DNA from: Patescibacteria group bacterium
GTDB taxonomy: Bacteria > Patescibacteriota > Dojkabacteria > JAKAPS01 > JAJZLI01
Direction of reading: 5' to 3'
Assembly (NCBI GenBank): GCA_023380695.1
Contig: JAMCRT010000030.1
Coordinates: 3,978 to 67,977 of the forward strand
DNA: 64,000 bases
Below, piece by piece: positions 1,017 to 64,000 of the stretch; position 1 is the first letter of the stretch, and every line of letters starts with the position of its first letter. The notes below the pieces were generated by a model. That model searched no databases. It saw only the letters and a program-made list of their open reading frames with translations, and had not been told where the DNA came from. The position numbers and the translations under genes are program-made.

Positions 1017-1696
1017 GATTGAGATGATACTATTGGAGATACAAAATCTTCTAAATCACCACTAAGCTTTGCACTCATAGGATTATATGCACTATAGAAA
1101 AGTTTAACAAGGTCTGATGTCGTAAGTTGTTTTGAATGAATTCCCATACGTGCTATTTGTTTAATTATATGATCTCTTCTTGGATATAATCTTACCTTTG
1201 CCTGAGATATTAAATTGTCAACATTACTTATACCAGGTTCCTTTCCAAAAAATTGCTTTACAAATGATGGTCTTTTAGGATTCCATGCAAGATAAGGAAT
1301 AATTATATAGAAATGCTTATCCAGCACATTATTTTTTACAATTAAATCCTTTATAAATTTTCTATAAATATCTATTTGGTATTTAATTTTTGGAGATGGC
1401 TGCTTAGCCTTGTATTCATCAATATGCTTAAGATACCTTGATATATCAATACTCTCAGTTCTAATTAAAACCTGTACATAAAAATTTAGAGAATTTAGTA
1501 GCCCTGCAAATGCATAAATTTTAGATTCTTGTTCTACATTAGATAACAAATAAAAATTTACAGCAGAAGTCTCCATTACAATACAAACATTGCCATTTTT
1601 TAAAACTATTAAATCATCCTTAATGTCTACAATATCTAAATGTTCTTGAGTTGTAGCAACAATTGGAACTTTTTTTGGGTCAGATAGAAATGCCAT
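1013..1696 (-). CDS. VirB4-family N-terminal domain, encoded as a separate ORF that overlaps the ATPase body in an ATGA
   Basis: 227 aa: ...PIVATTQEHLDIVDIKDDLIVLKNGNVCIVMETSAVNFYLLSNVEQESKIYAFAGLLNSLNFYVQVLIRTESIDISRY... This matches the N-terminal domain pattern of Gram-positive-type VirB4 (TcpF/PrgJ/TraE-like). Its stop (TGA 1015..1013) overlaps the downstream ATG (1016..1014). Confidence 0.6.
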   Translation of the reverse strand: MAFLSDPKKVPIVATTQEHLDIVDIKDDLIVLKNGNVCIVMETSAVNFYLLSNVEQESKIYAFAGLLNSLNFYVQVLIRTESIDISRYLKHIDEYKAKQPSPKIKYQIDIYRKFIKDLIVKNNVLDKHFYIIIPYLAWNPKRPSFVKQFFGKEPGISNVDNLISQAKVRLYPRRDHIIKQIARMGIHSKQLTTSDLVKLFYSAYNPMSAKLSGDLEDFVSPIVSSQS

Positions 1697-1698
1697 AA

Positions 1699-27216: not shown

Positions 27217-28992
27217 TAGTACACACACATATTGGACTTTAGGTGTGAATTTAAAATAAAATTTATAAAACTTTTAAAAAGATTATCATAAGAACTATCA
27301 AACAAGACTTTTTCAGCACTATTATTTAATTGGAAAAGACCCGGGCTACGACTACAGCCTGTACAATACTTAATCGTGTCAAAATCGTTTGTACCTATAC
27401 ATAATCGTTCCATGAAATACTTATGGTCTAGAAAACAATGTGTCAACAAAATTGTTATTCGTAATAACAGTAAACGTATTTTCAGGGTACAATGCATTAA
27501 ACTCATTAGGCAATTTGGCTTGCTTTTCCTTCCACTTAAACTCAAAAGCATTTACCTTCCCACTATACTCTTCAACAAGATCAATTTCTTTTTGGCTATA
27601 ACTACGCCAGAAAAAATAGTTTGGTTTATATTCTCCATATTCATTTGATTTTATTCTTTCAGTCACACAAAAGTTTTCCCACAATGCACCTACATCATTA
27701 CGTAAATCCAATTCATTAAAATTTCTAATAAGACTGTTGCGCAACCCAAGGTCTATGAAATATATTTTGCGTAGTTTTCCTACTTCGTTGCGCGGATTTC
27801 TTTTCAAGGCTGGAAGACGATAAATAACGAAAGTCTGCTCCAACAGAAAGATATATCTCTCAATAGTTTTGATATCTACCTCCAATAGGTTTGACAGTTC
27901 ACTAAGACTAACCTCATTTCCTAATTGTAGGGCCAAAGCTTGAAGCAGTTTGGTTAATAAAGGAGCCTTCTTGAGATTTTCATATTTCAATATGTCTTTA
28001 AATAAATAATTGGAACTTAGATCTGTAAGTGCATCAACGGCTTCACTGTCTGACATATTACATATCATTGGATATGAACCAAATATAAGCATCCTCTTCA
28101 TGACCTGATCTGTGACTAACCTGTCACCTTGAGTAATTTCTACAAATGAGAGTGGCTCTAAATGAAAAGTTCTTGATCTTCCAGTCAATGGCTCACTAAT
28201 TTTATTAGCAAGATCAAAACTAGAGCTCCCTGTCGCAATAATTTGCATTTCAGGATAATTTTCCACAAGAAGTTTTAAGGTGATCCCAATATTTTCTATT
28301 CTTTGAGCCTCATCAATTACCACAAGCTCGTAATCTCCTATAAAATTTTTTAATTCCATAGAACTTCTATTTGTCAGATTAGCGACCACACTTGGTTCAT
28401 CTCCATTCAAATATCGACCTTTTTTCGAAGATACCTCTAAAATTTTTTTGCTGAGAACAGTCTTTCCAACCTGGCGCGCACCATACAAAATGATAACTTT
28501 CCCTTTATAGAGATGCTTTTCAATATTATCTTGTAGCATTCGATGAAATATCATAACTAAATTATAGTAAATTGATAGACACAAGTCAACCAATTATATA
28601 TAAATTGGTAGACTTTATGTAAATAGTGCTTATTATTACTATCATCTCCTAAGTTTCTCTTAATTTAAGATATATGATATAGCAGTATTGGTTTAAGGGA
28701 TAAATTGGATATAATTTCTGGGCTGTCCAACTGGATACAATAAAAGGTGGCAAAATAATGTACTGGAGAATATATTATGTTAAAAGTAAGAACTATTAAA
28801 ACAGAGTTTTAGACAAAGCTCATAAAGAAAGCCATATTTTATATTATACTGGTAGGTGAATTAACAAACAGAAAATTTACTAAACGTCCGAAATTCCCAT
28901 ATTCTTATGTATTTTATAAATTGTTGAAAATTTACTAATTGGGCAAGTTAGGAAATATTAACCTAAATATATCAACCCTCTATAGACGACAC
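27217..28992. mobile_element. Inserted cassette of about 1.8 kb, flanked by 37-bp direct repeats, carrying a COG1373 AAA+ ATPase
   Basis: It sits between convergent rpe and zwf. The flanking repeats equal the rpe 3' end. Repeat copy B carries CAA>TAA, so it reads NVLYG*. Confidence 0.45.
27421..28593 (-). CDS. COG1373-type AAA+ ATPase (DUF4143-like), second paralog
   Basis: ILYGARQVGKTVLSKKIL is the Walker A motif. VVIDEAQRI is the Walker B motif. Confidence 0.7.
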   Translation of the reverse strand: MVDLCLSIYYNLVMIFHRMLQDNIEKHLYKGKVIILYGARQVGKTVLSKKILEVSSKKGRYLNGDEPSVVANLTNRSSMELKNFIGDYELVVIDEAQRIENIGITLKLLVENYPEMQIIATGSSSFDLANKISEPLTGRSRTFHLEPLSFVEITQGDRLVTDQVMKRMLIFGSYPMICNMSDSEAVDALTDLSSNYLFKDILKYENLKKAPLLTKLLQALALQLGNEVSLSELSNLLEVDIKTIERYIFLLEQTFVIYRLPALKRNPRNEVGKLRKIYFIDLGLRNSLIRNFNELDLRNDVGALWENFCVTERIKSNEYGEYKPNYFFWRSYSQKEIDLVEEYSGKVNAFEFKWKEKQAKLPNEFNALYPENTFTVITNNNFVDTLFSRP

Positions 28993-46917: not shown

Positions 46918-48252
46918 CTATTGTAAAGAACTTCGTATTTCATAAATTTGATTTTTTAGAGCATAATCATCATTTATCATTTTTTCTATTTTATCTACTG
47001 CATACATTACTGTTGTATGATCTTTTCTTTTTAAAAGACTTGCTACATCTGTATAGGGAAGATTTAAATCTACTCTTAAAAGATACATAGCTACCTGTCT
47101 TGGCATAACCACTTTATTTGTTCTTCTTTCTCCCCTTATTTCTTTTATTGATATACCAAATTTTTCACATATTGTATTTATAACATCTTGGGGTTTTATT
47201 CTTTTTATAGTTTTTTTTATCTGTATTCCTAAAATATCTTGTATTTCACTAAATCCCAGTTTTTTTTGTAAAGAATTTTGTATTGCTTCTATTTTTGTTA
47301 AAATTCCTTCAAGTTCTCTTACATTGGATCCAAAATTCTCAGATATAAAATTTATTATATCTTTATCAAATGTTATGTTTTTTTCTTCACATTTTTTATT
47401 TAAAATTGCAGTTTTTAGTTCTATATCTGGAACTCCAATGTCAGCAACCATTCCACCTTCAAATCTAGATACTAATCTTTCTTCTAAATTTTCTATATCT
47501 CTTGGGTGTCTGTCTGAGGCTAATATTATTTGCTTATTTGCTTGATGAAGAGAATTAAATGTGTGGAAAAACTCTTCTTGAGTTCCTTTTTTACCAGATA
47601 TAAATTGTATATCATCAATTATTAAAACATCTTTATCTCTGTATTTTTTCCTAAATTTATCTGAAGAACCATTCTTAATAGACTCTATTAGTTCTCCTAG
47701 AAATGTCTCTGAAGATAAATAAACTACAGAATAACCCTTATTCTTATCTTCTATGGCATTTCCTATGGCTTGTAGTAAGTGGGTTTTTCCAAGACCAACA
47801 CCTCCAAATATAAAGAGAGGGTTGTATATCATTCCAGGTTTCTCAACTACTGCAATAGAAGCTGCATGTGCAAGTCTGTTTGAGGAACCGACAACAAAAT
47901 TAGAGAATAGGTATTTTTTATTTAGATTTGAGGTTTGTTTTTTATCTGTATTGTCTGTTTCTTTTGTATATTCAAATATTGGAGATATGTCATCATCTTC
48001 TAGTTTTTGTATAATTGAAAAATTGATATCAATGGGTTCTCCTGAGGCATCTTGAAGTGCATTTCTTACAGTATTTAAATAGTTGTTTTGAATATAGTCT
48101 ACTATAAATGAATTCTGACATTCTATATTTGCAACCCCATCTTTAATTTCTTTTAAATTTAATTTTGAAAACCAAACTTTAAAACTCTTTTCAGGAACCT
48201 TCAGTTGTATTTTGTCAGTTGCTATTTTCCAAACAGAGTTGATGTTGTCCAT
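46918..48252 (-). CDS. dnaA: Chromosomal replication initiator DnaA
   Basis: LFIFGGVGLGKTHLLQAIGN is the Walker A motif. The C-terminal HTH block ...DHTTVMYAVDKIE is present. Confidence 0.95.
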   Translation of the reverse strand: MDNINSVWKIATDKIQLKVPEKSFKVWFSKLNLKEIKDGVANIECQNSFIVDYIQNNYLNTVRNALQDASGEPIDINFSIIQKLEDDDISPIFEYTKETDNTDKKQTSNLNKKYLFSNFVVGSSNRLAHAASIAVVEKPGMIYNPLFIFGGVGLGKTHLLQAIGNAIEDKNKGYSVVYLSSETFLGELIESIKNGSSDKFRKKYRDKDVLIIDDIQFISGKKGTQEEFFHTFNSLHQANKQIILASDRHPRDIENLEERLVSRFEGGMVADIGVPDIELKTAILNKKCEEKNITFDKDIINFISENFGSNVRELEGILTKIEAIQNSLQKKLGFSEIQDILGIQIKKTIKRIKPQDVINTICEKFGISIKEIRGERRTNKVVMPRQVAMYLLRVDLNLPYTDVASLLKRKDHTTVMYAVDKIEKMINDDYALKNQIYEIRSSLQ

Positions 48253-48456: not shown

Positions 48457-49101
48457 TTATAAAATGGCATTAACACTATCTGAAGAGTCTTCAAGCTTAG
48501 CTTCATCTATAACTTTATTTAAGTGAGTTTTTGTCATAGTTTTTAATTTTTTTGAAGGTATTTTCTCTACCCAGTTGAACAACCCGTTATAATCAAAATT
48601 TGATGGCAATGTTAACTCAACCAATGAAACATGGCGAGACCCAAGAACCGAGAGCAGATAAATTGTGTCGAATAGTGCTTTTTCCTTTGTTGCTAAACGT
48701 ACTCCATTTGTTTCAATAAATCCTCCATAGAGTTCTTTTGTAATATGATAAATGTGGAAAGTACCTAATGCAGTAGGTATTTTTTGAGCACGATCTAAAG
48801 ATATAACATGGATTTCTTTGGGAATTTGTTCAATCATATCATGCCTTGATAAGGCTGTCCAAAAAGATCCATAGGCACTATATGGAGCGGTAAGATATGG
48901 GGCAACAATAAGTGGATCCCTTATTGTGCTAATTGCCCACAATCCCCTTTTTATTTTTGTAACAACTCCAGAGTCTACTAGGGTTAACATAGTCTGGGAT
49001 GCAGCTGGTAGGGTTTTTTTTAAAACTAAAGCTACCTCAGTAGTTGTGACTATCGGTTTTTTAACTTGCGCTAGACGACCCAACGACATTATAGAATTCA
49101 T
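48457..49101 (-). CDS. AbiEi-like antitoxin/transcriptional regulator (COG5340-type winged-HTH N-terminus)
   Basis: KKPIVTTTEVALVLKKTLPAASQTMLTLVDSGVVTKIKRGLWAI is the AbiEi_4-type N-terminal domain. TAATG overlap with the upstream gene. Confidence 0.65.
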   Translation of the reverse strand: MNSIMSLGRLAQVKKPIVTTTEVALVLKKTLPAASQTMLTLVDSGVVTKIKRGLWAISTIRDPLIVAPYLTAPYSAYGSFWTALSRHDMIEQIPKEIHVISLDRAQKIPTALGTFHIYHITKELYGGFIETNGVRLATKEKALFDTIYLLSVLGSRHVSLVELTLPSNFDYNGLFNWVEKIPSKKLKTMTKTHLNKVIDEAKLEDSSDSVNAIL

Positions 49102-49919
49102 TATTTATCCTCCTTTTGGATTTTGATCTTTTTAATTTTATTAAATTTGTTTGAATTCTTATTTTTATGTATATTATTCATACGATTTATGACAAATTCA
49201 TGCATCCTTTCCCATGACTTTATAGAGTCATATGTTATTCTAAAATCATCTTTTAAAAAAGGGATTACCTGTTCTTTGAAATCTTCATAAGTTAGATTCT
49301 CTACTCTTGATAAGGCCTCTAATATATCTTTCTGTTTTAATATAGTGAGGTGACTTTCTGTTTTTCTGAATAATATCTCTAAATCAAAAATGTCTCTAGC
49401 CTTTGTTTCATTTCTTCTTGCTAGTGCCATAATTTTTTGGTCAATCATTGCATCTAAATTATATCTTTGCAGTAAGTATGGAGTAATGCCATATTGCCCA
49501 ACAATGCTTTCGGGAATATCTATTGTATCAAAACCATAGTCACTATGACGACCAGAAAATTCTATTTTAGTTCTAATTTCAACATCAGAGTTAGTTAAAA
49601 CTAATCCTAATTTCCAGCGATGAGTAGTTGTAGTCTGTTTTGGTTTACTAATATTTACAATGGAAATATTAGCACTATTAAGAGTACTAATAAGTACATT
49701 ACTAACTAAAACCTGACCAACAATTTTTTCTAGCTTTAATCCTTCATCTTTGATTAAATCTAGCTCAATGTCATTAGAATACCTAGGACTATTAAAATAA
49801 TACCTAAGATTAGCACCACCTTTAAGTACGTAATTTTTTGGATTATACTTATAAACCAAAACCGATAAAAATGTTAAATGGAACCGTTCTATAATTTGTG
49901 GTTTTGACGTTTCATTCAT
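49101..49919 (-). CDS. AbiEii/AbiGii-family nucleotidyltransferase toxin (DUF1814)
   Basis: YVLKGGANLRYYFNSPRYSNDIELDL is the PF08843 signature (KGGTaL...RfSeDlD). Confidence 0.7.
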   Translation of the reverse strand: MNETSKPQIIERFHLTFLSVLVYKYNPKNYVLKGGANLRYYFNSPRYSNDIELDLIKDEGLKLEKIVGQVLVSNVLISTLNSANISIVNISKPKQTTTTHRWKLGLVLTNSDVEIRTKIEFSGRHSDYGFDTIDIPESIVGQYGITPYLLQRYNLDAMIDQKIMALARRNETKARDIFDLEILFRKTESHLTILKQKDILEALSRVENLTYEDFKEQVIPFLKDDFRITYDSIKSWERMHEFVINRMNNIHKNKNSNKFNKIKKIKIQKEDK

Positions 49920-51791: not shown

Positions 51792-51820
51792 AGAGGGGGT
51801 TGACCCCTCTCTTTATTTGT
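51792..51820 (+). terminator. Rho-independent terminator after the major pilin gene
   Basis: AGAGGGG-gttga-CCCCTCT perfect 7-bp GC-rich stem followed by CTTTATTTGT. Confidence 0.7.
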
Positions 51821-52158: not shown

Positions 52159-52812
52159 GTGAATTTAAATATATTTACTTTATATCCAGACTATTTTATA
52201 TCTCCTTTTAACTTTGGAATTCTTAAAAAAGCTTTATCAGAAAAGTTGGTAAATATAAACGTAATAAACTTGAGAGAGTTTGCCTATGATAAAAGGGGGT
52301 CTGTTGATGATACTCCTTATGGAGGGGGAGCAGGAATGGTTTTAAGGGTAGATGTTTTACATAGAGCTCTTGAAAGTGTTAAATCGAAAAATGGGTTTTC
52401 TATTATGCTGTCTCCCGCAGGGAAAAGATATAATCAAAAAATTGCAAGGAAACTTTCAGTGAAAAAAGAAATAAATATTTTTTCAGGGAGGTTTGAGGGT
52501 TTTGATGAAAGATTTCTAAATTTTGTTGATATGGAATTATCTTTAGGAGACTTTGTTCTATCAGGAGGAGAGAGTGCTTCCCTTGTTGTTATAGATTCAG
52601 TTGTTCGTCTTATTCCTGGAGTTTTGGGAAATGAGAAATCTTTAGATACAGAATCTTTTTCTTTGGGAGGTTTATTAGAATATCCGCAATATACAAAACC
52701 AAAAGATTTTATGGGATTTGGTGTTCCAGAGGTACTTTTAAGTGGAGATCATAAGAAAATAGATATATGGAGAAAAGAGAAGAGCCTACAAAAAACCAAA
52801 AAGAGAGTTTAA
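52159..52812 (+). CDS. trmD: tRNA (guanine37-N1)-methyltransferase
   Basis: MNLNIFTLYPDYF...DDTPYGGGAGMVLRVDVL. Confidence 0.9.
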   Translation: MNLNIFTLYPDYFISPFNFGILKKALSEKLVNINVINLREFAYDKRGSVDDTPYGGGAGMVLRVDVLHRALESVKSKNGFSIMLSPAGKRYNQKIARKLSVKKEINIFSGRFEGFDERFLNFVDMELSLGDFVLSGGESASLVVIDSVVRLIPGVLGNEKSLDTESFSLGGLLEYPQYTKPKDFMGFGVPEVLLSGDHKKIDIWRKEKSLQKTKKRV

Positions 52813-53028
52813 AGATATATGGCTATTGATAGTTTGTATTGATTGATATATATTTAAAATATGATAAAAAGATTTATATATTTTGTTTATTTAAAACTTC
52901 AGTTAAAGTTTCTAAAATTTAAAGTTTTGAAAAAAAGACTTGGGGCATATAAAGAGGATGCAGTATCTTTAATCGAGAGTAATTCCCACTCAGATTTAAG
53001 AGCTAAAAGCTCTATAAGTATAAAAAAT

Positions 53029-54438
53029 ATGTTCTATATTCTTATTGTATTTTTTGCTCTAACTACAGGGGTTGTTTTTGCAAGCTCAGGGAGTTCAAAT
53101 TTAAATCAATGTGCTCCAGTTAACGGGTCAGGATTGTCTGTTTGGAATTCTTGTGGTTTTACCCCGTCAATTTTTCAATCAATGTCAATTTCAATACTTG
53201 GAAACTATACTCAATATCAAAATTTACTAGGTTGTGGAAGTAATCAAAAGTGTGTTAATTCATTTCATTACACAGGAGGATATGGGGCACTAGGAGATAC
53301 AACAGCACTTATGGGGTATATGTATACAGAGCATCCTGCATCAGGTGTTGGGTATTTTGCATACCTAGGACAAAAAGCAGGCTTTATAAACAATACCTAT
53401 GCTGCGGGTACTTCTCAGGTTACTTCAGAGCCTGTATATGGATTTTCTTTTCTTTCCCCAATAGAACATCTTTGGGCATTTTCTAGAGATATAGCATACT
53501 TACTTCTAGTTATAGTTATTATTGCAACAGGTCTTCTTATTATTATTGGGGGGAAAGTAGGGCAGTCTCAAATTCCAATAACGTTTATGAGTGCACTTCC
53601 AAATATTGTTGCAGCAGTAATATTGATAGAATTTAGTTATGCACTAGGGGGTTTTATGATAGATATAATGAATATTTTACTAGTACTTATTTTTAATATA
53701 TTTAGCTCGGGACTTCAGCATCTTGGGAACACAGGTTTTCCTTCTGCATTTAGTAGTAATTCATATATTTTTCATGTATTTGGAAGCTTACCTGGCGCCA
53801 TTAGTGGTGGATTACAGTCAGCAAGATTAAATAAACTTGTTACGAGTGGAGGCTTGTTAGGGGGACTGTTAAACTCATTAGGTAATCTTGCTTCGAACAA
53901 GACATTTTCTGGGATTATAGCTTTTTTAATAGCTATAATCCTATTATTTACAGCCTTAAAAATATTTATTTTACTTATGAAATCTTACTTGCAACTGTTA
54001 TTCTTGCCGATAGCTGCACCTTTTATGTTTCTTTTTGGGGCATTTCCAGGACAGGGAAAAATGATAGGTAAGTTTTTTATGGGTATGGCTAAAGCAGTTT
54101 TAACATTTGTTATTGTATATGTTGTGTTTCTTTTAATTTACTATTTACAACATGGAAACAATGGAAGTCCTTTGTCATTTGGAAATGGAGCAAATGTACC
54201 TTTGTTAGGATTTTCATATTTTACAAGTAATGGAGGAACAGAGGTGGTTTCTGTATTTATCTCTATTGCTTTGTTTGTCTGGATTCCAAAGATTGTAGCT
54301 GATATGACAAAGGCATTTGGATATGATCTTGGTGCATATGGTACAGAACTTAAAAAGGGATTTTCAGACCCATACTCAAGGCTTACTAATTGGTATAAAA
54401 GAGGGAGAGGTTCTCTGTCTTCCAGAGGTAATGCCTGA
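53029..54438 (+). CDS. VirB6/TrbL-like polytopic membrane protein (signal peptide, Cys-containing extracytoplasmic domain, 5 or more TM helices). Tentative.
   Basis: Start chosen at MFYILIVFFALTTGVVFASS (the track ORF begins at 52861). About 140 aa extracytoplasmic domain with 5 Cys. Then multiple Gly-rich TM helices. The architecture and context resemble VirB6/ConG. Confidence 0.35.
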   Translation: MFYILIVFFALTTGVVFASSGSSNLNQCAPVNGSGLSVWNSCGFTPSIFQSMSISILGNYTQYQNLLGCGSNQKCVNSFHYTGGYGALGDTTALMGYMYTEHPASGVGYFAYLGQKAGFINNTYAAGTSQVTSEPVYGFSFLSPIEHLWAFSRDIAYLLLVIVIIATGLLIIIGGKVGQSQIPITFMSALPNIVAAVILIEFSYALGGFMIDIMNILLVLIFNIFSSGLQHLGNTGFPSAFSSNSYIFHVFGSLPGAISGGLQSARLNKLVTSGGLLGGLLNSLGNLASNKTFSGIIAFLIAIILLFTALKIFILLMKSYLQLLFLPIAAPFMFLFGAFPGQGKMIGKFFMGMAKAVLTFVIVYVVFLLIYYLQHGNNGSPLSFGNGANVPLLGFSYFTSNGGTEVVSVFISIALFVWIPKIVADMTKAFGYDLGAYGTELKKGFSDPYSRLTNWYKRGRGSLSSRGNA

Positions 54439-54452
54439 TTGTATATTTTATT

Positions 54453-55109
54453 ATGAATCTTAGAGCATATTATTATCAAAAATATGGAAATGAATTTGAT
54501 GTATTTGCCCATTTTATAAATACAAATGGACTAGAAAGTGACTTTTTGGAGCTGTTTGAAGTATCAAGAGATTATTTGAAAGATAGCCTAGATTTTGTTT
54601 TGTATGATTATTTTTTTTCAGCAATAGATTTTTTTTATTCAAATAGTTCTGATATAAAATATGATTTTCTTTTCTTTAAAAAAATAATAGATGAGAAGTT
54701 TATTGAGTTTTGTATGTCAGATGAAGGGAAAGAGATAATTGATGAGACACATCTATATTTTGGAGGGAAGAGTATAGATATATTCGATGTTATTTATAAT
54801 AGTAGAGAACATTTTGAAAATTCCGATTATCCTTCTGTTGTTACAAATCTAGAATATTTCAAATTTCTAGATAAATATTCAGATATAAAATATATAAAGG
54901 AGGTAAAAATTCTATCAATGCTTAGAACATTTATTGACAATGGGGGTTTTGGTGGAGAATTTTTCTCTCCATTTAGCAAAGATATGCAAAAATATACAGA
55001 CATTATTATAAATGGAGATTTTAGAGAAATGGATCAAAGAGTTTTCAGAAGTAATATTGAAGAATTTAGAGGAATTTTAGAAATAGAAGATATAGGGGTA
55101 TATGAATAA
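54453..55109 (+). CDS. Hypothetical acidic cytoplasmic protein
   Basis: No TM helices. Rich in D/E/F/Y. Confidence 0.35.
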   Translation: MNLRAYYYQKYGNEFDVFAHFINTNGLESDFLELFEVSRDYLKDSLDFVLYDYFFSAIDFFYSNSSDIKYDFLFFKKIIDEKFIEFCMSDEGKEIIDETHLYFGGKSIDIFDVIYNSREHFENSDYPSVVTNLEYFKFLDKYSDIKYIKEVKILSMLRTFIDNGGFGGEFFSPFSKDMQKYTDIIINGDFREMDQRVFRSNIEEFRGILEIEDIGVYE

Positions 55110-57835
55110 TGGATATAAATACTGCGGTTAGCACATATTGTGACCAATACTATACAAAAGAAGCTCTTTTTAGACTTTTGCGTACTAATAAAATAGATCC
55201 TGGTAATATAACAATTTCTGATGACGAGTTAAATATACTAGTCTCTACAGATCAATATGCAAGATTTGTTACACTGCAAATTGCAGAAAATCTTAAAGCA
55301 AGATTTACTGCAAATAAAAGTACTGTATATAGACAGAGATATCTTAACAATGAGGCAGATTTGCTTTCTAAGGCTATAGCCCCATTTATTGCATCAAGCT
55401 ATATTCCAGATGAAAGAAGGGAAGGTAGAGTAACTGGCATTAACGGCGTACATACAAATCTTAGGGCAAGAGGAAAGATGCTGGAGACTGCAATTGACTA
55501 TTGCCTTACAGTGTATCATGAACATGGGTATATGCCTCAATTAGATCAAACTTTGAAGCCTGTAGGAGCTATTCTTCCATCTGGATTTTCTAGAACCGGG
55601 AGTATTGATATAAGAGGGGGGAACGTTGACTCTGTTTCTTTACAAGATTTGCATTCTGTAATAAAGGAAGTCGCATGGAATGCTGGAATAAGGGCTGGAG
55701 TAAAAAGTCTTACAAAAAAACAAAAAATAGCAAGATTACAGTCTAAGTATGGAATATCTTCTGATGAGGCAGAAAGAATTTATGAAAAATTTTTGGAAGA
55801 GTTTAGTTATATAAATATACTTCAAAAAGATAATGGGAAAAGTTATGAGAGACCTTTACTTGAAAGACACGGAATCTACCCAAGACTATATCTTTGGCAA
55901 TATATATTAAATGATACTAGGGCAAAAAGAAAGGGGTCTCTGTTAGATATTCCACATACATGGAGAATGGCAGCAAAAATAGGGTTTACTTCTGCTATAT
56001 CCTCTGGTCGTTGGGGAAATGTGAGAGACGCAAGTGCATATAGAGACACAATTTTTGGAAAGATTTTCGAACACAAAAAAATTGAATATATGGGAGCTGT
56101 GATGAGTTTTGTTGCCAAAGAAGAGGAAAGAACTCTTCCACTAGTTGTAAGTAGAGAGCGTAAAAGAGCTCTTAAAGGAAGAAGGTTGTGGGGTGCTGAT
56201 AAAACTAACCCATATTTATATTCCGACTATATTGACTCTCAAGTTTTCATTAAAGCAAATAGTAAAAAGATTTCTGATAGATTAGAAGAAACGGTGTCTG
56301 AGAGAAATTCTGTATTAAAATGGTTTCAGAAAACAAAAAATGCAAAAGCAATAAAGGCATATAAAAAGCCTCCTAGTAAGAAAAGTAAAAAAAGAAGAGG
56401 ATTAAATTTTTTAGATTTAATTTTGGCTGTTCCTGCATTAGTTATAGATGCAATAACTTTTCTTGCTACAGATGCTGCTTTAGCTGGAGTAAGTGTTTTA
56501 GGCAAATTAGGAATTGTTAGTGAAGATAGTTTTTTAAGAACTATTTTTTCAGGAAATATGGAAGGAGGATTGTGGGATAAAATTCTTCTTTCATGGGATG
56601 GAATGAAATTTACATTTTCTGGGCTTAAATTTGTATTAAAAGATTCAATTGTGGGGGCAATACCTGGGGCTATAGTGGCAGTTCTTTCAGGGAGTCCATT
56701 GCTTGGTGGAATTGTATCTTTTACAATGTTTGCTCCAAAATTCTTTGGAGACTTTACACAAATGTTTGCAATGTCAGGGCCTGCAGGTGATATAGTTACA
56801 AAAATTGTAGAGGATTTTGGAGAAAAAAGTCTTTCAGGTGGAGAGATTTTGGTAAAATCACTTGGTTCTGGGGTATATATTGGGGCCCCTTTATTTATAC
56901 TGTCTGCACTTTTTGGCCTTCCTATAGGAACTGCAGCTCTTATTACTGTGGGGGTTGTTGGGGTAAGGGCAGCAGATCTTGCTATCTTTGAGAAAGTTTT
57001 AAGTCCAAGATTTATCGACGCAGGTGCCATAGATGCATCTACCGCTCAGGAGGTTTTATTTAAATCAAAATATCTTCTTAATTTTGGTACTCCTAGTCTT
57101 GGACTAGTAATTGCAGGTGCCGTGACAGGGAATATACCTTTATTAATTTTAGGTGGTGCAGGGTTTACAACATCTGCAGTTTCAGATTTCTTTAGAAATT
57201 CTTTGTTTGACAGTATGTCTATTAAAAGTGGGACAGATTTAGTTTCTTCTATACATGGAGTTACAACATTTACGTTGGGTCCAGCAATAATAGGTGGAGC
57301 CATAGGCGGTCCAGTGGGAGCAGTAATAGGAGGAGCTATAGGAGGGGTTACTGGTATTAGCTTTACTCTATTAAAGCATACGGTTTCAGATATAGCTATA
57401 GATCCAAGAATGCGGGTATTTGCAGAAGATGAGAGCAAAATGATAGAGGCTCAAAGAAAACTTATTTCATTTAATAGAAATTCTTTTACTACTGATGCCG
57501 AGAGAGGTATTTTAAGAAACTTTGATCCACGAACAGGAGTAGACGGGAATATTGACAGTTTATTGAGAAGTAAAGGATATGATTTTAAAATACAGGATTT
57601 GAGAGATTGGGGATTAAATGATGCTGATATTGAAAGGTTGTTTAGAGGTAGGGCTACTTTCTCAGGGACAGTTATAGGGGTGAAAAATTTTAACTTTGAA
57701 CTGAAATCATTAAAGGAGAATGTAGAAGCAGTAAGGGGAGAATTTTTAAGGGATTTTGTTAATGAAGATAAACTTGCAACGGATTTGGGAAAGGGAACTT
57801 CAGCTACAGCTCCCATATATTCAATTTTTTTGTAA
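55109..57835 (+). CDS. Large (908 aa) protein: soluble N-terminal domain of about 420 aa followed by a glycine-zipper-rich multi-TM region
   Basis: Residues 420-720 are full of GxxxG/AxxxG arrays (e.g. GGAIGGPVGAVIGGAIGGVTG). I recognise no catalytic motif. Confidence 0.45.
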   Translation: MDINTAVSTYCDQYYTKEALFRLLRTNKIDPGNITISDDELNILVSTDQYARFVTLQIAENLKARFTANKSTVYRQRYLNNEADLLSKAIAPFIASSYIPDERREGRVTGINGVHTNLRARGKMLETAIDYCLTVYHEHGYMPQLDQTLKPVGAILPSGFSRTGSIDIRGGNVDSVSLQDLHSVIKEVAWNAGIRAGVKSLTKKQKIARLQSKYGISSDEAERIYEKFLEEFSYINILQKDNGKSYERPLLERHGIYPRLYLWQYILNDTRAKRKGSLLDIPHTWRMAAKIGFTSAISSGRWGNVRDASAYRDTIFGKIFEHKKIEYMGAVMSFVAKEEERTLPLVVSRERKRALKGRRLWGADKTNPYLYSDYIDSQVFIKANSKKISDRLEETVSERNSVLKWFQKTKNAKAIKAYKKPPSKKSKKRRGLNFLDLILAVPALVIDAITFLATDAALAGVSVLGKLGIVSEDSFLRTIFSGNMEGGLWDKILLSWDGMKFTFSGLKFVLKDSIVGAIPGAIVAVLSGSPLLGGIVSFTMFAPKFFGDFTQMFAMSGPAGDIVTKIVEDFGEKSLSGGEILVKSLGSGVYIGAPLFILSALFGLPIGTAALITVGVVGVRAADLAIFEKVLSPRFIDAGAIDASTAQEVLFKSKYLLNFGTPSLGLVIAGAVTGNIPLLILGGAGFTTSAVSDFFRNSLFDSMSIKSGTDLVSSIHGVTTFTLGPAIIGGAIGGPVGAVIGGAIGGVTGISFTLLKHTVSDIAIDPRMRVFAEDESKMIEAQRKLISFNRNSFTTDAERGILRNFDPRTGVDGNIDSLLRSKGYDFKIQDLRDWGLNDADIERLFRGRATFSGTVIGVKNFNFELKSLKENVEAVRGEFLRDFVNEDKLATDLGKGTSATAPIYSIFL

Positions 57836-57865
57836 AGAGAAATTCCAGGATACAGAGACTTAAAG

Positions 57866-59548
57866 TTGGGTGATGCAGGAAATGTAAACGAACTAAGGAA
57901 TATAGATTTATCAAAATATTTTGAAGGGTCTAAGTTTGAATTGAATTTAAAATTTTTAGAGCATCTAACTTTAAGTGATATTGCCAGTGAAGAGGGATTA
58001 GTCGCAAAATTAGCGGATTTGAGGAATGTGGATCCAGGGAGATTAGTTGATATACAAAACTTTTTTACAGAGAGAGGGCTAGAGGGCGGAATAGATTTCA
58101 CTAACAATGCTAGGATTGCAAGAGCTCTTGGCAATGTAAATATAGCAGAGCTTTCAAAGGAAGGGATTTTGAATGATTTAGTAATAAAGTCTGGAGATTT
58201 AACGGGTAGCATAGAGGAGCTAACAGGGTTTGATATAAGGGCTGCAGGTCTTAGTGCAAAAGTTTTGCAAGGAGCTCCTTGGTCAATATCAAAAATTCCT
58301 GCATTAATGAGATCTGATATAAAGCTTCCTATACCTGGAATGACACACGCAACATTTGCAGATATATCTCCAGCTATGAACTCAGGATTTATTGCTGGAA
58401 TTGGGTTAAGTCTTGTTGGTGTATCTCCCGTGATTGCGGTGGCTACAGGTGTGGGAGTTATGGGTGCAAGACTGGTTCTTTCTAGTATTTATAGGAGTCC
58501 AGAGACTAGTTTGCCGATAGGTGCTATTGGAGAAGGAGGCAAAGCATTACTAGAGGCTTTTTCTCACAGTATTAACGTAGGAATGGTTACTTTTGTAGTT
58601 GCAGATCTTTTACTTCATAGTATTCCTGTTGCTGGAATGGTAGCCGCTGGTGTAACTGCAGGATATACAGCATTAAGATTTATATTGAAAGGTAAAGGTT
58701 GGTTTAAAGATGGGGGCGGAATTATTAAGGGTATAGGGGCTGCAAAGGCGGACTTTCTTGGAAAATTAGGTGTTCCAGATTGGGCAATTAAAATTTTTTC
58801 ATTAAAAGGTGCATTTGATGTTGGTATGGTAATACAGCTTGATGACTCTTTGATGAATCCTGCCAAATTTATATCTACACTTGGAACATTCACACTTCCT
58901 GCCATTATAAGTTCATGGGGTACGTTAATTTTTGGGTTTGCAGGAGCATACGGTTTAGCGGCGCTTATACTTGGAGCAGGATTCGGGCTTGCAACGGCCG
59001 GTTTGGGGTTAGGGATACTGGTGGTAGGATATGGAATAGATTGGTTAGTAAAAGGTATTACAGGATTTGATATTGGTCATTGGATTTTAGGTTGGATAAA
59101 AACAGGAATATCTGATGTGTTTTCATGGTTTGGAAATCATGCTATGGCTCCAATCTCTTGGGGTTTTGATATCCTAATTACTATGATGCTTTTAATCTTT
59201 AGGACAGATTTTGATATAGATGAGTTTGTGCGTACAATTGTAACTACCGTTGTTATTGTTGCTATATTTATGAATATTTTTGGAGGGGGTGCTGCTTCAG
59301 GAGGTACAAATAGCAATACTTCAAATATTGCAACAAACAATCATACAAAGTCTGGAACTGTTGGGTTTCTAGTGTCCCCATATTCTGGAAAAATTGTAAA
59401 TATAGAACAAAATAGCAAGATTTTGGCAGATACTGTATATATAAAGAATTCAGAAGGAGAAGTAAGTGTTCATAATATATATAACCCATATTTGTATATT
59501 GGTGAACATATAACTAAAGGTTCATTTATTGGGAATACTGTAAAATGA
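57866..59548 (+). CDS. Glycine-zipper membrane protein (560 aa) with a C-terminal half-M23/lipoyl-like beta domain
   Basis: FGFAGAYGLAALILGAGFGLATAGLGLGILVVGYG. C-terminus YSGKIVNIEQNSKILADTVYIKNSEGEVSVHNIYNPYLYIGEHITKGSFIGNTVK. Confidence 0.45.
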   Translation: MGDAGNVNELRNIDLSKYFEGSKFELNLKFLEHLTLSDIASEEGLVAKLADLRNVDPGRLVDIQNFFTERGLEGGIDFTNNARIARALGNVNIAELSKEGILNDLVIKSGDLTGSIEELTGFDIRAAGLSAKVLQGAPWSISKIPALMRSDIKLPIPGMTHATFADISPAMNSGFIAGIGLSLVGVSPVIAVATGVGVMGARLVLSSIYRSPETSLPIGAIGEGGKALLEAFSHSINVGMVTFVVADLLLHSIPVAGMVAAGVTAGYTALRFILKGKGWFKDGGGIIKGIGAAKADFLGKLGVPDWAIKIFSLKGAFDVGMVIQLDDSLMNPAKFISTLGTFTLPAIISSWGTLIFGFAGAYGLAALILGAGFGLATAGLGLGILVVGYGIDWLVKGITGFDIGHWILGWIKTGISDVFSWFGNHAMAPISWGFDILITMMLLIFRTDFDIDEFVRTIVTTVVIVAIFMNIFGGGAASGGTNSNTSNIATNNHTKSGTVGFLVSPYSGKIVNIEQNSKILADTVYIKNSEGEVSVHNIYNPYLYIGEHITKGSFIGNTVK

Positions 59549-60417
59549 AAGTAATAAAAATTGTTATACCAATAATTGTATTTATAGCATTAATATATTT
59601 ATATGTTTTGAGTATGAATTCTCATAGTAATCTACATATAAAGATAAAAAGTAAAAAGTCTCATATCAATAGTTCCAGAAATATTCCTAAAGTCTCTTTT
59701 CAGTCAAATAAATTCAGATTTTTAAAAAATAATTTCAAGTTTGGGTTTAATCCTCAAAATAACAGTTATTATGTAAATAAAGTAAATTTAAATCCATATT
59801 CTGTTGCTATAAATTTAGGTTTTTCAAAAGCTCCAACAACTATAAATGGTAGTAATAGTTTGGTGTGGACAAATAGTAAGGGACATTTAGTTTATTCAAA
59901 TAATACATACTTTGAAATTTTAAATAAAGGATCTTCTTCTAATATTCAAAATTATAAATCTCAACTGATAAAAAAAGTGTTTAATATGGGAAATATCTCT
60001 TCTGTGGATTCTGAGAATATTGTAGGTAATACATATGTATATAAAATATATCCTACTATAGATAGTCAATATATATATACCAACAATTTTCACAGATTTT
60101 ATGAAAGTATAATTCTTTATTCAAATAAATCATTAAAAAGTTTTTCTATATTACCCATAGATTTGAAAACACAAAAAGGATATTTGAATAAAATTACTTT
60201 AAGCTATATTAATATGAATAACTATCCTTTATATATAGGGAATTTAAATAGTGGAACTATTTCAGGAATAAATATAGGTAAGGTTAGAAATATCTTTTAT
60301 TATGATCTTTCATCAAATAATATAATTCCTGCATATATGATTTATGGAAATGTTGTTATAATAAATAATGGAGATATGAGATATGAGAGTTTTATACCAA
60401 AAATTAAGTACAATTAG
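59545..60417 (+). CDS. Secreted/bitopic hypothetical protein (possible VirB8-like scaffold). Speculative.
   Basis: N-terminal TM/signal sequence MKVIKIVIPIIVFIALIYLYVL. Tyr/Asn-rich beta-type sequence. Confidence 0.35.
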   Translation: MKVIKIVIPIIVFIALIYLYVLSMNSHSNLHIKIKSKKSHINSSRNIPKVSFQSNKFRFLKNNFKFGFNPQNNSYYVNKVNLNPYSVAINLGFSKAPTTINGSNSLVWTNSKGHLVYSNNTYFEILNKGSSSNIQNYKSQLIKKVFNMGNISSVDSENIVGNTYVYKIYPTIDSQYIYTNNFHRFYESIILYSNKSLKSFSILPIDLKTQKGYLNKITLSYINMNNYPLYIGNLNSGTISGINIGKVRNIFYYDLSSNNIIPAYMIYGNVVIINNGDMRYESFIPKIKYN

Positions 60418-62830
60418 TCTCATTTTAGGCACAATATTTTGCATTATGCTTTTTGTTAATGTATCAAATGTACATGCTGCATCATGTGCTAGTTATACGG
60501 GGAATGCTCCACAACATATGGCAGTATCTTGTAACGGTAATCTGTTAACAGGGAAAATAGTTCTTAATAATATTGCAAAGAATAAATTGTCTGCCTCAGG
60601 AATTGGAACTGTAAATGTTAGTATTCCAAATATTCCTTTATTTAAATATTTTGACTCTGTTTCTTCTTTAGGTGTTAAAAGTAATCCTACCAATTTTGGT
60701 ATTCCATATCAAACATATGGATATTTAATGGAGAAATTAAACTATAATCCAAATATTAACTATAATGTCTCTTCTAATCTAAATGGTGTAGGGGCATTAA
60801 ATATTCCATATTCTTGTGGTGCCAGTAATGGGGTTACATGTTCTGTTATGTCTATAAATGGAAATGGTAATTATGGATATTTTAGTGTTCCGTATATTGG
60901 AAAAGCCGCAGACTTGTTTACGCTGGGAAATATATTTTCATTAAGTTCTCCCTATAAAATAAATACAATCTCACTGCCCAATAACTCTATTATAACGAGC
61001 ACTCCAAATTCTTTAATAGGAAAATGTTCAGGGAGTTCTAATGGTTGTGTGAGTGGAAAGAAACCTTTAGACTATAAATTAACAACAGGATATGGGAATC
61101 CTTATACTCTTCAAGGAGCAACAATTAATAAACAAATATCAATTTTAGGTACGATTGGCACATTTTTTAGCAATTTATGGGGTAGCGTAACTTCTGTTTT
61201 GACTGGATTAGCTTCTGCTATTGGCCTTGGGTCTAACCCCCCTCCGCCTCCTTTAACAAAGAATTTTCCATTAAGCTCAAGCAGTGGGTTTTGTCCTCAG
61301 TATATATCTCAACTAAATAATACTGCGCCTATTTCTAATACTGGCCAAAATGCATGTACACAAGGATCTCCTGCATTTCAAGTACAGGCATCATTTTCCT
61401 GTGTACCACAATATAATACATATATAAAAGATCAAAAAATTATGAATACTGACCAACAAAGTGTAAATCAAGAGACAGTAGTTGTGAATGGTTTAGTAAA
61501 TCGAGTAAATACATTAACTCAATATATGAATTCTCCCAATACTAGTTTTCAGTCTGCGCTTGGTACTGGACTGGAATTAAATTCTTTGCAAACTCAATTA
61601 TCTGCAGCCGAGAATACATTGAATACGGATAATAGTGCTTTGTCTGTTGCAATTGCAAATTTAAATATTGCTAATACAAATTTGCATAATTGTCTTTCAA
61701 CCCTACAGACATATGAGACTAGTGGTGCACCATTTTCTTTCCAATCAGATCTTTATTTACAAGGAATAAATAGAATTTTAGCAGACTTTTGGTATATGGA
61801 GGCTATAATGAATGGAGGCCCTCCTATTGGACATACTAACACTCATTCTTGGAAAAATGATGTAAATTCAAAAACATTTTTTCTCAAGAAAAATATTAAT
61901 AGAACAAATCTATATAAAGGAATAGGAATCTCAGTTCCAGTTAATATAACAATTAAAACTTACAGCGCTGAAAATGCTGCTAGTATTACCACTGGGGCTA
62001 CTAGTGCTACATACTATTTCCCATGGCTAGGAGATGCTATACAAATTGCTCAAAATCTTGCAACACATCATTTTCAGCCATATTACGCAAATAATACAAC
62101 ATCTTCCTCTCCAACTTACCCTACCTTAGCTCCTGGTGAATATTATATTAAAGATCCATCAAAGCATCCAGACCCTTTATTGTTATACCTTATTTGCACA
62201 GGATCTTTATCTCCAAATGATCCGGTGGTAAGGAATGCTTTAGGTTCATATAGTGTTTCAAAATTCTTTTCATCTGGGGCATGTAATGGTTCTCCTTCTG
62301 TAAGTACTACATCAGTACCTGCAGGAGGAACACCTACTAGCAATGGATCATACAATAATCCTTTAAGAAAAATATCTAAACTGAACCCTGAAAGAATTGA
62401 TCAAGGAGTTGATTATTCTGGGACAGGGCCAATATATGCCTTAGGTCCAGGAACAATAGTATATGTACATGCACCAAGTAACAGTGGTTGGGGACCAAAC
62501 AATATCTTTATAAACGAAAAATTGTCTGCAGGATCTGCAAAGGGACAATATGTATATGTGGCTGAATGTATAAATCCTACAGTATCTGTTGGGCAATCGG
62601 TAACATCTTCTACAGTTATAGGATATATGACAAATTGTGGTTCAGGCATTGAAACTGGTTGGGCAACAGGTCCCAATGATCTAGCTGCAGCACATAGTGT
62701 TTTTAACGGAAGTAATTCTACAGCTTTTGGTCTAAATTATAGTGAATTATTAGCTTCACTTGGGGCACCTCCGGGAAACCTTAATCTCCCTTTATTAGGG
62801 ACTCTTCCGTCTAATTGGCCCAATTGGTAA
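60383..62830 (+). CDS. Secreted 815 aa protein with a C-terminal degenerate M23 (LytM-like) domain
   Basis: Signal peptide ...FVNVSNVHAASC. C-terminus RIDQGVDYSGTGPIYALGPGTIVYVHAPSNSGWGPNNIFINEKL...QYVYVAECINPTVSVGQSVTSSTVIGYMTNCGSGIETGW follows the M23 topology, but HxxxD is DQGVD and the HxH motif is absent. Confidence 0.5.
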   Translation: MRVLYQKLSTISLILGTIFCIMLFVNVSNVHAASCASYTGNAPQHMAVSCNGNLLTGKIVLNNIAKNKLSASGIGTVNVSIPNIPLFKYFDSVSSLGVKSNPTNFGIPYQTYGYLMEKLNYNPNINYNVSSNLNGVGALNIPYSCGASNGVTCSVMSINGNGNYGYFSVPYIGKAADLFTLGNIFSLSSPYKINTISLPNNSIITSTPNSLIGKCSGSSNGCVSGKKPLDYKLTTGYGNPYTLQGATINKQISILGTIGTFFSNLWGSVTSVLTGLASAIGLGSNPPPPPLTKNFPLSSSSGFCPQYISQLNNTAPISNTGQNACTQGSPAFQVQASFSCVPQYNTYIKDQKIMNTDQQSVNQETVVVNGLVNRVNTLTQYMNSPNTSFQSALGTGLELNSLQTQLSAAENTLNTDNSALSVAIANLNIANTNLHNCLSTLQTYETSGAPFSFQSDLYLQGINRILADFWYMEAIMNGGPPIGHTNTHSWKNDVNSKTFFLKKNINRTNLYKGIGISVPVNITIKTYSAENAASITTGATSATYYFPWLGDAIQIAQNLATHHFQPYYANNTTSSSPTYPTLAPGEYYIKDPSKHPDPLLLYLICTGSLSPNDPVVRNALGSYSVSKFFSSGACNGSPSVSTTSVPAGGTPTSNGSYNNPLRKISKLNPERIDQGVDYSGTGPIYALGPGTIVYVHAPSNSGWGPNNIFINEKLSAGSAKGQYVYVAECINPTVSVGQSVTSSTVIGYMTNCGSGIETGWATGPNDLAAAHSVFNGSNSTAFGLNYSELLASLGAPPGNLNLPLLGTLPSNWPNW

Positions 62831-62875
62831 CAATATGTTCTTGCAAAAGAATTTTAATATATATAGTATATTTAT

Positions 62876-63274
62876 ATGAACTTAACAGAACTTCATACTA
62901 TAATAAAAAAGTATTATCCTTGGGGATTATTAATAATTCTTTTTATACTGATTATTATATTTATAATGTCCCCATCTACTCCTGAGATCAATAAAAATAT
63001 TCCAAAAAGCCTAGAAGTAGTAAATCAAAGTAAATTTAGTGCGAAAGCAATAAATTATAATGGGCCAAATTTCGACATACATTATGTTCCAACTTATCCT
63101 AGTAACGGAAAGTTGAGTGCAGGGAAACTATATGTGGATATAAAGGTAGATGCTTTTTTAAATTCTCCTAATTTAAAAAAAGAGGAATCAATTCTTTTGA
63201 ATAAAGCAAAGAGATATTTATCAAAAAATGGAATAAATCCAAATGAGAAAAGTATAGTGTATACATTTAATTAA
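62876..63274 (+). CDS. Small membrane-anchored/secreted hypothetical protein
   Basis: N-terminal TM helix. Confidence 0.3.
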   Translation: MNLTELHTIIKKYYPWGLLIILFILIIIFIMSPSTPEINKNIPKSLEVVNQSKFSAKAINYNGPNFDIHYVPTYPSNGKLSAGKLYVDIKVDAFLNSPNLKKEESILLNKAKRYLSKNGINPNEKSIVYTFN

Positions 63275-63399
63275 TGGGAATATATGATTAAGTGGAAATG
63301 ATAGGATAGATATAGAGTGGCTAGATATTTATTAATAAGGAAAAGAAATGTCAGAAGCTATAAAATATAGAAATATACCTTATAAATAAAAATACAAAA

Positions 63400-64000
63400 A
63401 TGGAAAATAAATGGAATAAGAATATATTAAAAAAGAAAAATTTACTAGTTTTAATAGCTATAGGCATATCTACCACATTTATTATCTTTTCGGTAAAAGT
63501 ATCGTTTGCGAAAGAAGTGCCTCCATGGTTAAGAGGCTATCCGTTAAATTTATATGTGCAAAGCATAGTTAATGGTAGTGGAAGCGGAGGGGTTGGCGTA
63601 ATTACAGGAAATGGGGGAACGGGGGCTCCTCCAAGTTCATGCAATAAGGCATTATTTACAAATGGAGGTAATTGTCATTTGTCTAAGGGGTTACTAACTT
63701 TATATGGAAAAGTTGGAAGTTTAATGAAGATACCTCCAGCTTTTCTTGCGGCTGAAAAACATCAGGAATCTGGGGCCAATTGTCTTTTTAATGAAACAAA
63801 TAGTGGAAACACTACAGCAAATGCAATTTCTCTTATGTCTATTATTGATCATAGCCTTAATTATCACTCTACTGGGCCATATCAATTTGAGCCTGCTACG
63901 TGGAGTGGATATGCTACTCAGACATGGAGTATTATAAAACAAAATTTTCCATATGCTATATCTGCTGGAGAGAGTCAGAATATTTTATTAGATTCTATGA
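63400..64000 (+). CDS. Lytic transglycosylase (SLT-domain, VirB1-like), partial. Runs off the window end.
   Basis: My translation from the ATG at 63400: MENKWNKNILKKKNLLVLIAIGISTTFIIFSVKVSFA... is a signal peptide. Then ...MKIPPAFLAAEKHQESGAN...GPYQFEPATWSGYA carries the catalytic E-S motif and the GLMQ-equivalent block of SLT domains. Confidence 0.55.
   Translation, partial: MENKWNKNILKKKNLLVLIAIGISTTFIIFSVKVSFAKEVPPWLRGYPLNLYVQSIVNGSGSGGVGVITGNGGTGAPPSSCNKALFTNGGNCHLSKGLLTLYGKVGSLMKIPPAFLAAEKHQESGANCLFNETNSGNTTANAISLMSIIDHSLNYHSTGPYQFEPATWSGYATQTWSIIKQNFPYAISAGESQNILLDSM

Follow-up and report, generated by a model that had tools for sequence, protein, structure and literature searches.

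What does a block of tightly packed genes encode when none of its products matches a known protein family? The question is raised by a 64,000-nucleotide stretch (hereafter, the window) from the genome of a Patescibacteria group bacterium (Dojkabacteria; assembly GCA_023380695.1, contig JAMCRT010000030.1, positions 3,978 to 67,977), in which eight co-directional open reading frames (ORFs) on the plus strand extend from position 52861 to the end of the window, downstream of a thioredoxin gene and trmD (52159–52812). For none of the eight did Pfam or NCBIfam return a match above the curated cut-off. The block probably represents the envelope half (membrane and cell-wall components) of a Patescibacteria-type, Gram-positive-like type IV secretion system (T4SS) in a split, lineage-specific form. 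Such a machine is not of a new class; the phylum is already known to have this system, which is here split and equipped with accessory proteins of its own. An initial annotation, made from the sequence alone, saw a T4SS channel in the Gram-positive style that combines a VirB6-like protein with wall hydrolases, and this central idea is borne out.

The evidence begins with the first gene of the block (52861–54438, plus strand). Its product of 525 amino acids (aa), p525, belongs to a very large family: when 1.84 billion cluster representatives were searched exhaustively with HMMER, 3,473 matched at the level of 50%-identity clusters, 1,744 of them with E < 1e-30. The true size of the family is seen only by this exhaustive approach; word-indexed searches under-sampled it (15–17 hits). 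Every family member that was looked up is annotated as 'hypothetical protein'. A scan of one genome per species yielded at least 553 p525-family loci, of which the best 80 were kept with flanks of 10 kb, and their ORFs were called and clustered. These 80 loci stem from Microgenomates groups (Curtiss-, Woese-, Shapiro-, Collier-, Roizman-, Gottesman-, and Beckwithbacteria), Parcubacteria groups, and Saccharimonadales.

The genes that surround the p525 relatives are characteristic of a T4SS. Arrays of pilin-like small proteins (median of 6 genes) are present in 42 of the 44 loci with at least 8 kb of upstream sequence, and their VirB2-like identity was checked with ten random members, nine of which match the Pfam family T4SS_pilin (eight above the gathering score). 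Among the 45 loci with at least 8 kb of downstream sequence, PrgI is encoded in 23, a TrsD-like family of 227-aa proteins in 17, and VirB4 in 14. At least one T4SS marker occurs in 35 of the 36 loci that are fully flanked on both sides. The usual order, p525–X–PrgI–227-aa protein–VirB4, equals the published T4SS gene order VirB6–X–VirB3–TrsD–VirB4 (PMC12102498, Table S3). In one locus (L100), the profile hidden Markov model (HMM) of p525 matches (E=4e-17) a polytopic protein of 1,084 aa encoded directly upstream of PrgI, a TraC-like protein, and VirB4; this locus is laid out like the T4SS cluster of Southlakia epibionticum, with pilins followed by VirB4, a VanY-type peptidase, a lysozyme, recF, and dnaN (PMC10633639, Table S2). 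At the level of the family, p525 is encoded together with VirB4, VirB3, and VirB2 genes; in the window, these partners are located 49 kb away and are not adjacent.

Two observations concern the taxonomic labels of p525-family loci. Many records of metagenome-assembled genomes titled 'uncultured Pseudomonadales' or 'uncultured Gammaproteobacteria' (L019, L021, L023, and others) hold typical Patescibacteria T4SS loci with pilin arrays, PrgI, a TrsD-like protein, and VirB4; as taxonomic labels, these titles look wrong. In a complete genome labelled candidate division TM6 (L035; CP011212.1, 36576–57556), a p525 relative is encoded with PrgI and a TrsD-like gene nearby; either the p525 family extends beyond Patescibacteria or this record is mislabelled.

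The architecture of p525 shows features by which members of the VirB6 class are recognized: it is polytopic, with at least five transmembrane (TM) segments, and carries an extracytoplasmic domain. A conserved N-terminal tail of 56 aa is followed by a signal-like first TM segment (TM1), an ectodomain of ~130 aa, at least seven hydrophobic segments, and a charged C-terminal tail; the hydropathy profile has nine peaks, with the ectodomain located after TM1 and a variable Gly/Ser-rich loop in the center. The 56 codons 5' of the signal-like segment (52861–53028) are retained at the protein level in orthologs with 60–80% identity. The long start that gives 525 aa is therefore probably genuine, and TM1 is probably a membrane anchor rather than a cleaved signal peptide. 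The ectodomain, initially described as Cys-rich, contains only four Cys residues, two of which hardly vary among 15 aligned family members, most of them close relatives.

The predicted structure of p525 points in the same direction as its context. The AlphaFold2 model is of low confidence (predicted local distance difference test, pLDDT, 47) and shows the fold common to solved VirB6-class proteins; its top matches in the PDB are exclusively members of this class, namely TrwI of plasmid R388 (7O3V, 8RT9, 8RTD) and DotA of the Legionella Dot/Icm system (9NGY), which are polytopic helical membrane proteins like p525. They are its best and only specific structural matches, yet without significant sequence similarity. 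Unlike TrwI and DotA, p525 has a cytoplasmic N-terminal tail and an ectodomain (~130 aa) in which two Cys residues are conserved; its host is a monoderm, unlike those of the TrwI and DotA systems, and a VirB5 partner was not identified. When the p525 family was compared by hhalign with an 8-sequence VirB6 alignment, PrgH, Orf15 of Tn916, and the single sequence of TrwI, the top match fell on the same p525 segment (P331...W349) in the first three of the four comparisons but not with TrwI. In the comparison with the VirB6 alignment, the family-invariant Pro and Trp of p525 fall on the invariant residues Pro181 and Trp199, with an identical spacing of 18 residues. Because of the T4SS locus context and the fold matches with TrwI and DotA, the assignment of p525 as a VirB6-class protein of a Patescibacteria T4SS is supported, although the Pfam-defined family test fails. 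This bears out the VirB6-like identity that the initial annotation had given to the first protein of the block, with 35 of 36 fully flanked loci linked to a T4SS and the TrwI and DotA matches of a low-confidence model.

The ATPase module of a T4SS is present in the same genome. It occupies positions 1–3537 on the minus strand, 49 kb from the block and on the other side of dnaA (46918–48252, minus strand). It comprises the N-terminus of a VirB4-like protein (1–1016, minus strand), which runs off the window and appears in the extension L013 as a 670-aa DUF87/P-loop_TraG/AAA_10 protein, a TrsD/TraC-like member of the 227-aa family (1013–1696, minus strand), and a 612-aa protein of the PrgI/VirB3 family (1699–3537, minus strand; Pfam PrgI, E=2.9e-7). 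A TrbC pilin and a TraC-like protein, along with a second VirB4-like ATPase, are encoded about 5 kb further to the left in the extension (region L013:8160–20684). The mark of a Patescibacteria-type T4SS, which is an origin-proximal combination of VirB4, PrgI/VirB3, and a TrsD-like protein, is present in the window genome. HMMs of recurrent T4SS-locus families detected one copy of p525 and one TrbC/T4SS_pilin gene (L013:17348–17590) over ~95 kb; a VirB2-like pilin array is absent from the ~95 kb that are visible. Because this region holds a single p525 copy and a single pilin gene, and PrgI and VirB4 are 49 kb away from the block, the T4SS of the window clade consists of separate sub-loci around the origin.

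The same separation would also fit a lineage-specific envelope apparatus, independent of VirB4 and built around an exapted VirB6-like protein, in which the very large membrane protein encoded downstream of p525 (the giant; see below) serves as a channel or host-membrane pore and the hydrolase-like proteins provide attachment. In the window clade and in locus L072, the p525 gene has left the pilin/VirB3–VirB4 locus and has joined that of a giant multi-TM glycine-zipper protein, and its partners there occur nowhere else. L072, which belongs to a more distant lineage and is the only one of the 36 fully flanked loci without a T4SS marker, has the arrangement trmD–p525 relative–giant, as in the window clade; its giant (L072:11513–18757) comprises 2,414 aa, 9 TM segments, and 23 glycine-zipper motifs, and its likeness to that of the window is limited to the glycine-zipper stretch. 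The window genome, however, retains VirB4, PrgI, and a TrsD-like protein; dispersed T4SS genes are known elsewhere; and pore formation by the giant, whose window copy contains a stop codon, lacks positive evidence. A separate apparatus of this kind is unlikely. Equally doubtful is that the detached VirB6-class protein of the window clade and L072, together with the fast-evolving giant and proteins that bind or cut the wall, forms a T4SS-derived host-contact or envelope channel that is independent of the canonical ATPase. As a side observation, the C-terminal tail of the 2,414-aa protein of L072 (ALLAAELEYNG...GPMGIF) has a lysozyme-like look, which makes it a candidate only.

The block is part of the core chromosome, a vertically inherited, origin-proximal operon of a small, low-GC clade of Patescibacteria, and not a mobile element. 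The window, with a GC content of ~30%, is a chromosome segment around dnaA and dnaN, and the GC content of the block resembles that of the remainder. As claimed initially, the eight ORFs that follow trmD are co-directional, tightly packed, and partly overlapping (overlaps of 1, 4, and 35 nt). The locus was found again by exact-protein look-up in three independent public assemblies (L001–L003), which extend the sequence rightward by 9 kb. There, the block ends with a 130-aa gene (p130) to the right of its last window gene (p276; see below), followed by an AAA_14/DUF4143 ATPase (L001:11974–13098) and, beyond it, by housekeeping genes on the opposite strand (L25, a tRNA synthetase, and a nucleotidyltransferase). 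The extension encodes neither VirB4 nor VirD4 nor a relaxase, contrary to the initial suggestion of a coupling ATPase or relaxase just past the window.

In every relative found, the order pilin–pilin–thioredoxin–trmD–p525–p218–giant–p290–large secreted protein, adjoining dnaA and dnaN, is kept, with orthologs whose identity to the window proteins ranges from ~76% to ~29%, varying by gene and relative. The marks of a conjugative element (a linked relaxase, coupling protein, or integrase, and variable presence) were not found: the genes are absent from the 10 kb downstream, and the position is constant in all relatives. The initial annotation had held that conserved synteny beside trmD in a genome without any T4SS partners would speak against its reading; the synteny does exist, but so do the partners, with PrgI, a TrsD-like protein, and VirB4 at a distance of 49 kb.

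This genomic setting bears on two further explanations. A prophage tail or lysis remnant, with a tape-measure-like giant and tail lysins, or an integrated conjugative element could be suspected from the combination of glycine-zipper TM giants with M23, NlpC/P60, and lysozyme-like domains, which resembles sets of tape-measure proteins and tail lysins, and from a weak match of the 815-aa secreted protein of the block (p815; see below) to a PHROG endolysin (E=3.2e-4 over residues 674–754, the same stretch as its M23 match). But PHROG gave no match for the giant or six other block proteins, phage structural neighbors are missing, and no capsid, terminase, integrase, or relaxase is encoded within 10 kb downstream of the block, whose chromosomal position is constant in relatives that have diverged considerably and whose GC content does not stand out. 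With phage structural genes and a relaxase absent and synteny constant, an origin from a prophage or conjugative element was rejected as hardly credible.

Somewhat more can be said for an accessory module of a type IV pilus that acts together with the N-methyl pilins encoded a short way upstream, but it is still very improbable. Genes of the type IV pilus are present in the window (PilB, PilM/N, and N-methyl pilins), the order pilin–pilin–thioredoxin–trmD–p525 is kept in L009, L010, and L016–L018, and a pilin gene lies upstream also in L072. In all other lineages, however, the relatives of p525 adjoin pilins of the VirB2 type and not those of type IV pili; in the window, the thioredoxin gene and trmD intervene, and a terminator-like hairpin (51792–51812) follows the pilin genes.

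Among the lineage-specific members of the block, the most conspicuous is the giant (55109–59548, plus strand). The initial annotation had recognized its glycine zippers but had read two giant proteins, as the window sequence suggests with ORFs of 908 aa (55109–57835) and 560 aa (57866–59548). Both lie in one frame, separated by a single TAA (57833–57835); the assemblies L001–L003 encode a single ORF of 1,479 aa at this locus, and the orthologs in related genomes are likewise single ORFs, with 1,458–1,571 aa. An alignment of L001–L003 with the window over 11,125 bp shows 13 mismatches, all of them within positions 57811–57833, and 100% identity elsewhere. Positions 57806–57833 of the window are a perfect 28-bp inverted copy of positions 56073–56100, located 1.7 kb upstream in the same gene. 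This inverted copy contains all 13 differences and the premature TAA and is absent from the three otherwise identical assemblies. Either a mutation by template switching or an artefact of assembly may account for the premature stop. An alternative genetic code as the reason for the 1,479-aa gene call was ruled out, since the cause is a difference in sequence and not recoding.

The full-length giant consists of an N-terminal soluble domain of ~430 aa with a Lys/Arg-rich end, a first TM block (~431–755), a soluble middle part of ~330 aa, a second TM block (~1092–1400), and a short, beta-rich C-terminal tail. It has 14 hydrophobic peaks, about seven in each of the GxxxG-rich blocks, and 23 [GAS]xxxGxxx[GAS] motifs. 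The first module is the only part that is conserved in the most distant ortholog. A test for internal duplication gave a weak result (hhalign, 63% between the two TM blocks). Homolog searches, iterated HMM searches, and hhalign comparisons with the families neighboring p525 found no homologs outside the clade; a word-indexed search under-sampled the giant, with 3 hits. Single-sequence and profile searches against PDB sequences returned no match, the AlphaFold2 model of the first 908 aa (pLDDT 38) was uninformative in a fold search, and the C-terminus of the 560-aa part was matched by none of the tools.

The same restricted distribution applies to p218, p290, p815, p132, and p276, the homologs of which are, like those of the giant, confined to the clade; for the giant, p218, p290, and p815, iterated HMM searches and hhalign found no relation to the recurrent p525-neighbor families in 77 other loci. 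The product of p218 (54453–55109, plus strand) is small and acidic, lacks TM segments, and has no match in Pfam or NCBIfam; its gene is always located between p525 and the giant, and it is presumably a cytoplasmic partner. The p290 protein (59545–60417, plus strand) is bitopic, with an N-terminal TM anchor and an extracytoplasmic domain, and has no match in Pfam, NCBIfam, or PHROG. A second small bitopic protein is encoded by p132 (62876–63274, plus strand); in the relative L018, there is a second, related gene of ~130–136 aa.

Two members of the block are candidates for an action on the cell wall. The secreted protein p815 (60383–62830, plus strand) consists of a conserved N-terminal part of ~620 aa and a swappable C-terminal domain (62282–62830) of the peptidoglycan-peptidase type. 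In the window, this domain resembles Peptidase_M23 of Pfam (E=5.8e-4), and the degenerate M23 domain postulated initially is found there, if weakly (20.4 bits, where the cut-off is 28.7), with the ligand motif HxxxD replaced by DQGVD and HxH by GIETG; at the C-terminus of the 560-aa ORF, where a second such domain had been proposed, it is not found. The ortholog in L018 (17466–19745) has a weak, His-less M23-like domain as in the window. By contrast, the orthologs in L016 (17604–19967; 27.8 bits) and L017 (17149–19467; 31.5 bits) carry an NlpC/P60 domain above the cut-off of 23, which is not present in p815 of the window, with DCSG and QHV kept; the match in the L010 ortholog is weak, and the catalytic Cys and His are kept. 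The NlpC/P60 domains of L016, L017, and L010 are apparently active.

The second candidate, p276 (63400–64000, plus strand), is represented in the window by its N-terminal 200 aa; the full 276 aa are encoded at L001:10525–11355. It is signal-anchored and a candidate for a lysozyme-like protein or for the VirB1-like SLT transglycosylase that the initial annotation had seen in it. What stands of this claim is the motif AAEKHQESG, which aligns with CDPRFIAAIWGQES in the orthologs (QES is conserved among them), and a weak SLT_2 match (E=0.011) in one ortholog only; the window protein itself has no match in Pfam, NCBIfam, or the PDB. Searches of PDB sequences with single sequences and profiles of p815 and p276 gave no match.

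Dead LytM-type factors are known from EnvC and NlpD as activators of hydrolases, and the degenerate M23-like domain of p815 could accordingly be that of a housekeeping module for wall remodelling or division, with the membrane proteins as its scaffold. Core-genome synteny beside trmD and dnaA would agree with such a role, as would the SpoIID and VanW wall genes that adjoin p525 relatives in other loci. The module is nevertheless improbable, because 35 of 36 loci tie the p525 family to a T4SS, its fold matches are of the VirB6 class, no divisome gene is located in or beside the block, and the p815 orthologs appear to hold an active NlpC/P60 domain rather than one of the regulator type.

If the block is the envelope half of a T4SS, p525 would form a VirB6-type membrane platform or protochannel, energized by VirB4, which would be anchored by PrgI. 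The p218 protein, the giant, the bitopic p290, p132, and p130 may replace the large accessory proteins of other lineages, and the membrane proteins among them could complete or gate this platform. The p815 protein and the p276 candidate may open or bind peptidoglycan, that of their own cell and/or that of the host, so that the machine spans the wall; they would take the roles of the peptidase and lysozyme genes adjoining virB4 in S. epibionticum, which are essential (PMC10633639). With neither a relaxase nor a coupling protein linked to it, the system probably functions in host interaction (with protein or other cargo, or by contact) rather than in conjugation, as already proposed for Patescibacteria T4SSs in the literature; an origin-proximal chromosomal T4SS without relaxase is the published norm for the phylum.

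Several results weigh against this interpretation. The window p525 has no match to TrbL (Pfam PF04610) at the curated threshold, the 105 family members scanned include only two with marginal matches (1 of 30 and 1 of 75; E=0.0027 and 0.0062), and single-sequence and profile searches with p525 found nothing among PDB sequences. The hhalign values are low (9% with the VirB6 alignment, 0.5% with PrgH, 0.6% with Tn916 Orf15, and 0.2% with TrwI), and the structural matches depend on a model with a pLDDT of 47. In the window clade, p525 adjoins neither VirB4 nor a pilin array, and we infer its physical cooperation with VirB4. For the other block genes, no homologs are detectable at T4SS loci elsewhere. 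A stop codon cuts the giant in two in the window genome, the catalytic His residues are missing from the M23-like domain of p815, and p276 is assigned to SLT proteins at the level of a motif.

The T4SS of S. epibionticum (SEML1_0006–0019; PMC10633639) and those in a survey of Patescibacteria (PMC12102498) are the closest known systems. They share with the window genome a chromosomal location beside dnaA and dnaN, PrgI, a TrsD/TraC-like protein, VirB4, a large polytopic VirB6-type protein, a large secreted protein with a wall-peptidase domain at its C-terminus, and a protein of the lysozyme type (here the p276 candidate), and they also lack a linked relaxase or coupling protein. The initial label 'uncharacterised' is correct in that all the block proteins are annotated as hypothetical but not with respect to the Patescibacteria T4SS, which has already been described in these two studies. 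Unlike the S. epibionticum cluster, the system is split in the window genome, where the membrane and hydrolase genes follow trmD at a distance of 49 kb from PrgI and VirB4, no VirB2-like pilin array was seen nearby, and the VirB6-like protein is short (525 aa instead of ~1,000 aa). The p218 protein, the 1,479-aa giant, p290, p132, and p130 have no detectable counterparts in that cluster.

Conjugation modules of Gram-positive bacteria, such as PrgH/PrgI/PrgJ/PrgK of pCF10 and Orf15/Orf14 of Tn916, follow the same logic, with a polytopic VirB6-like protein, VirB3, VirB4, and a bifunctional wall hydrolase. ConG and CwlT of ICEBs1 are a further example of this logic. Whereas the hydrolase of these modules combines a lysozyme with an NlpC/P60 or M23 domain, the functions are distributed over separate proteins in the block, and its M23-like domain is degenerate. 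The modules are also mobile, consist of contiguous genes, and include a relaxase and a coupling protein, and the block differs from them in all these respects.

Two features of the neighborhood stand apart from the T4SS. A gene for an AbiEii-type toxin and its 214-aa partner (48457–49919, minus strand) are located between dnaA and the pilin genes; the spot is empty in the relative L010, and the pair looks like a lineage-specific insertion. The AAA_14/DUF4143 ATPase directly past the block is one of three paralogs, with the others at 10431–11861 and 27421–28593 of the window (both on the minus strand).

The T4SS of Patescibacteria is essential for epibiotic growth in the only species tested (Wang et al. 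2023, PMC10633639), which is why it matters. The survey of the phylum found VirB6 to be scarce or absent in Microgenomatia and put this down to extreme divergence (Quinonero-Coronel et al. 2025, PMC12102498). The assignment of p525 as a VirB6-class protein gives a name to membrane proteins annotated so far as 'hypothetical', a family of very large size (~3,470 clusters at 50% identity) that is encoded at the VirB6 position and includes many members from Microgenomates. With its split system and its own accessory proteins, the window clade offers a natural experiment for separating the core of the machine from its host- or lineage-specific parts.

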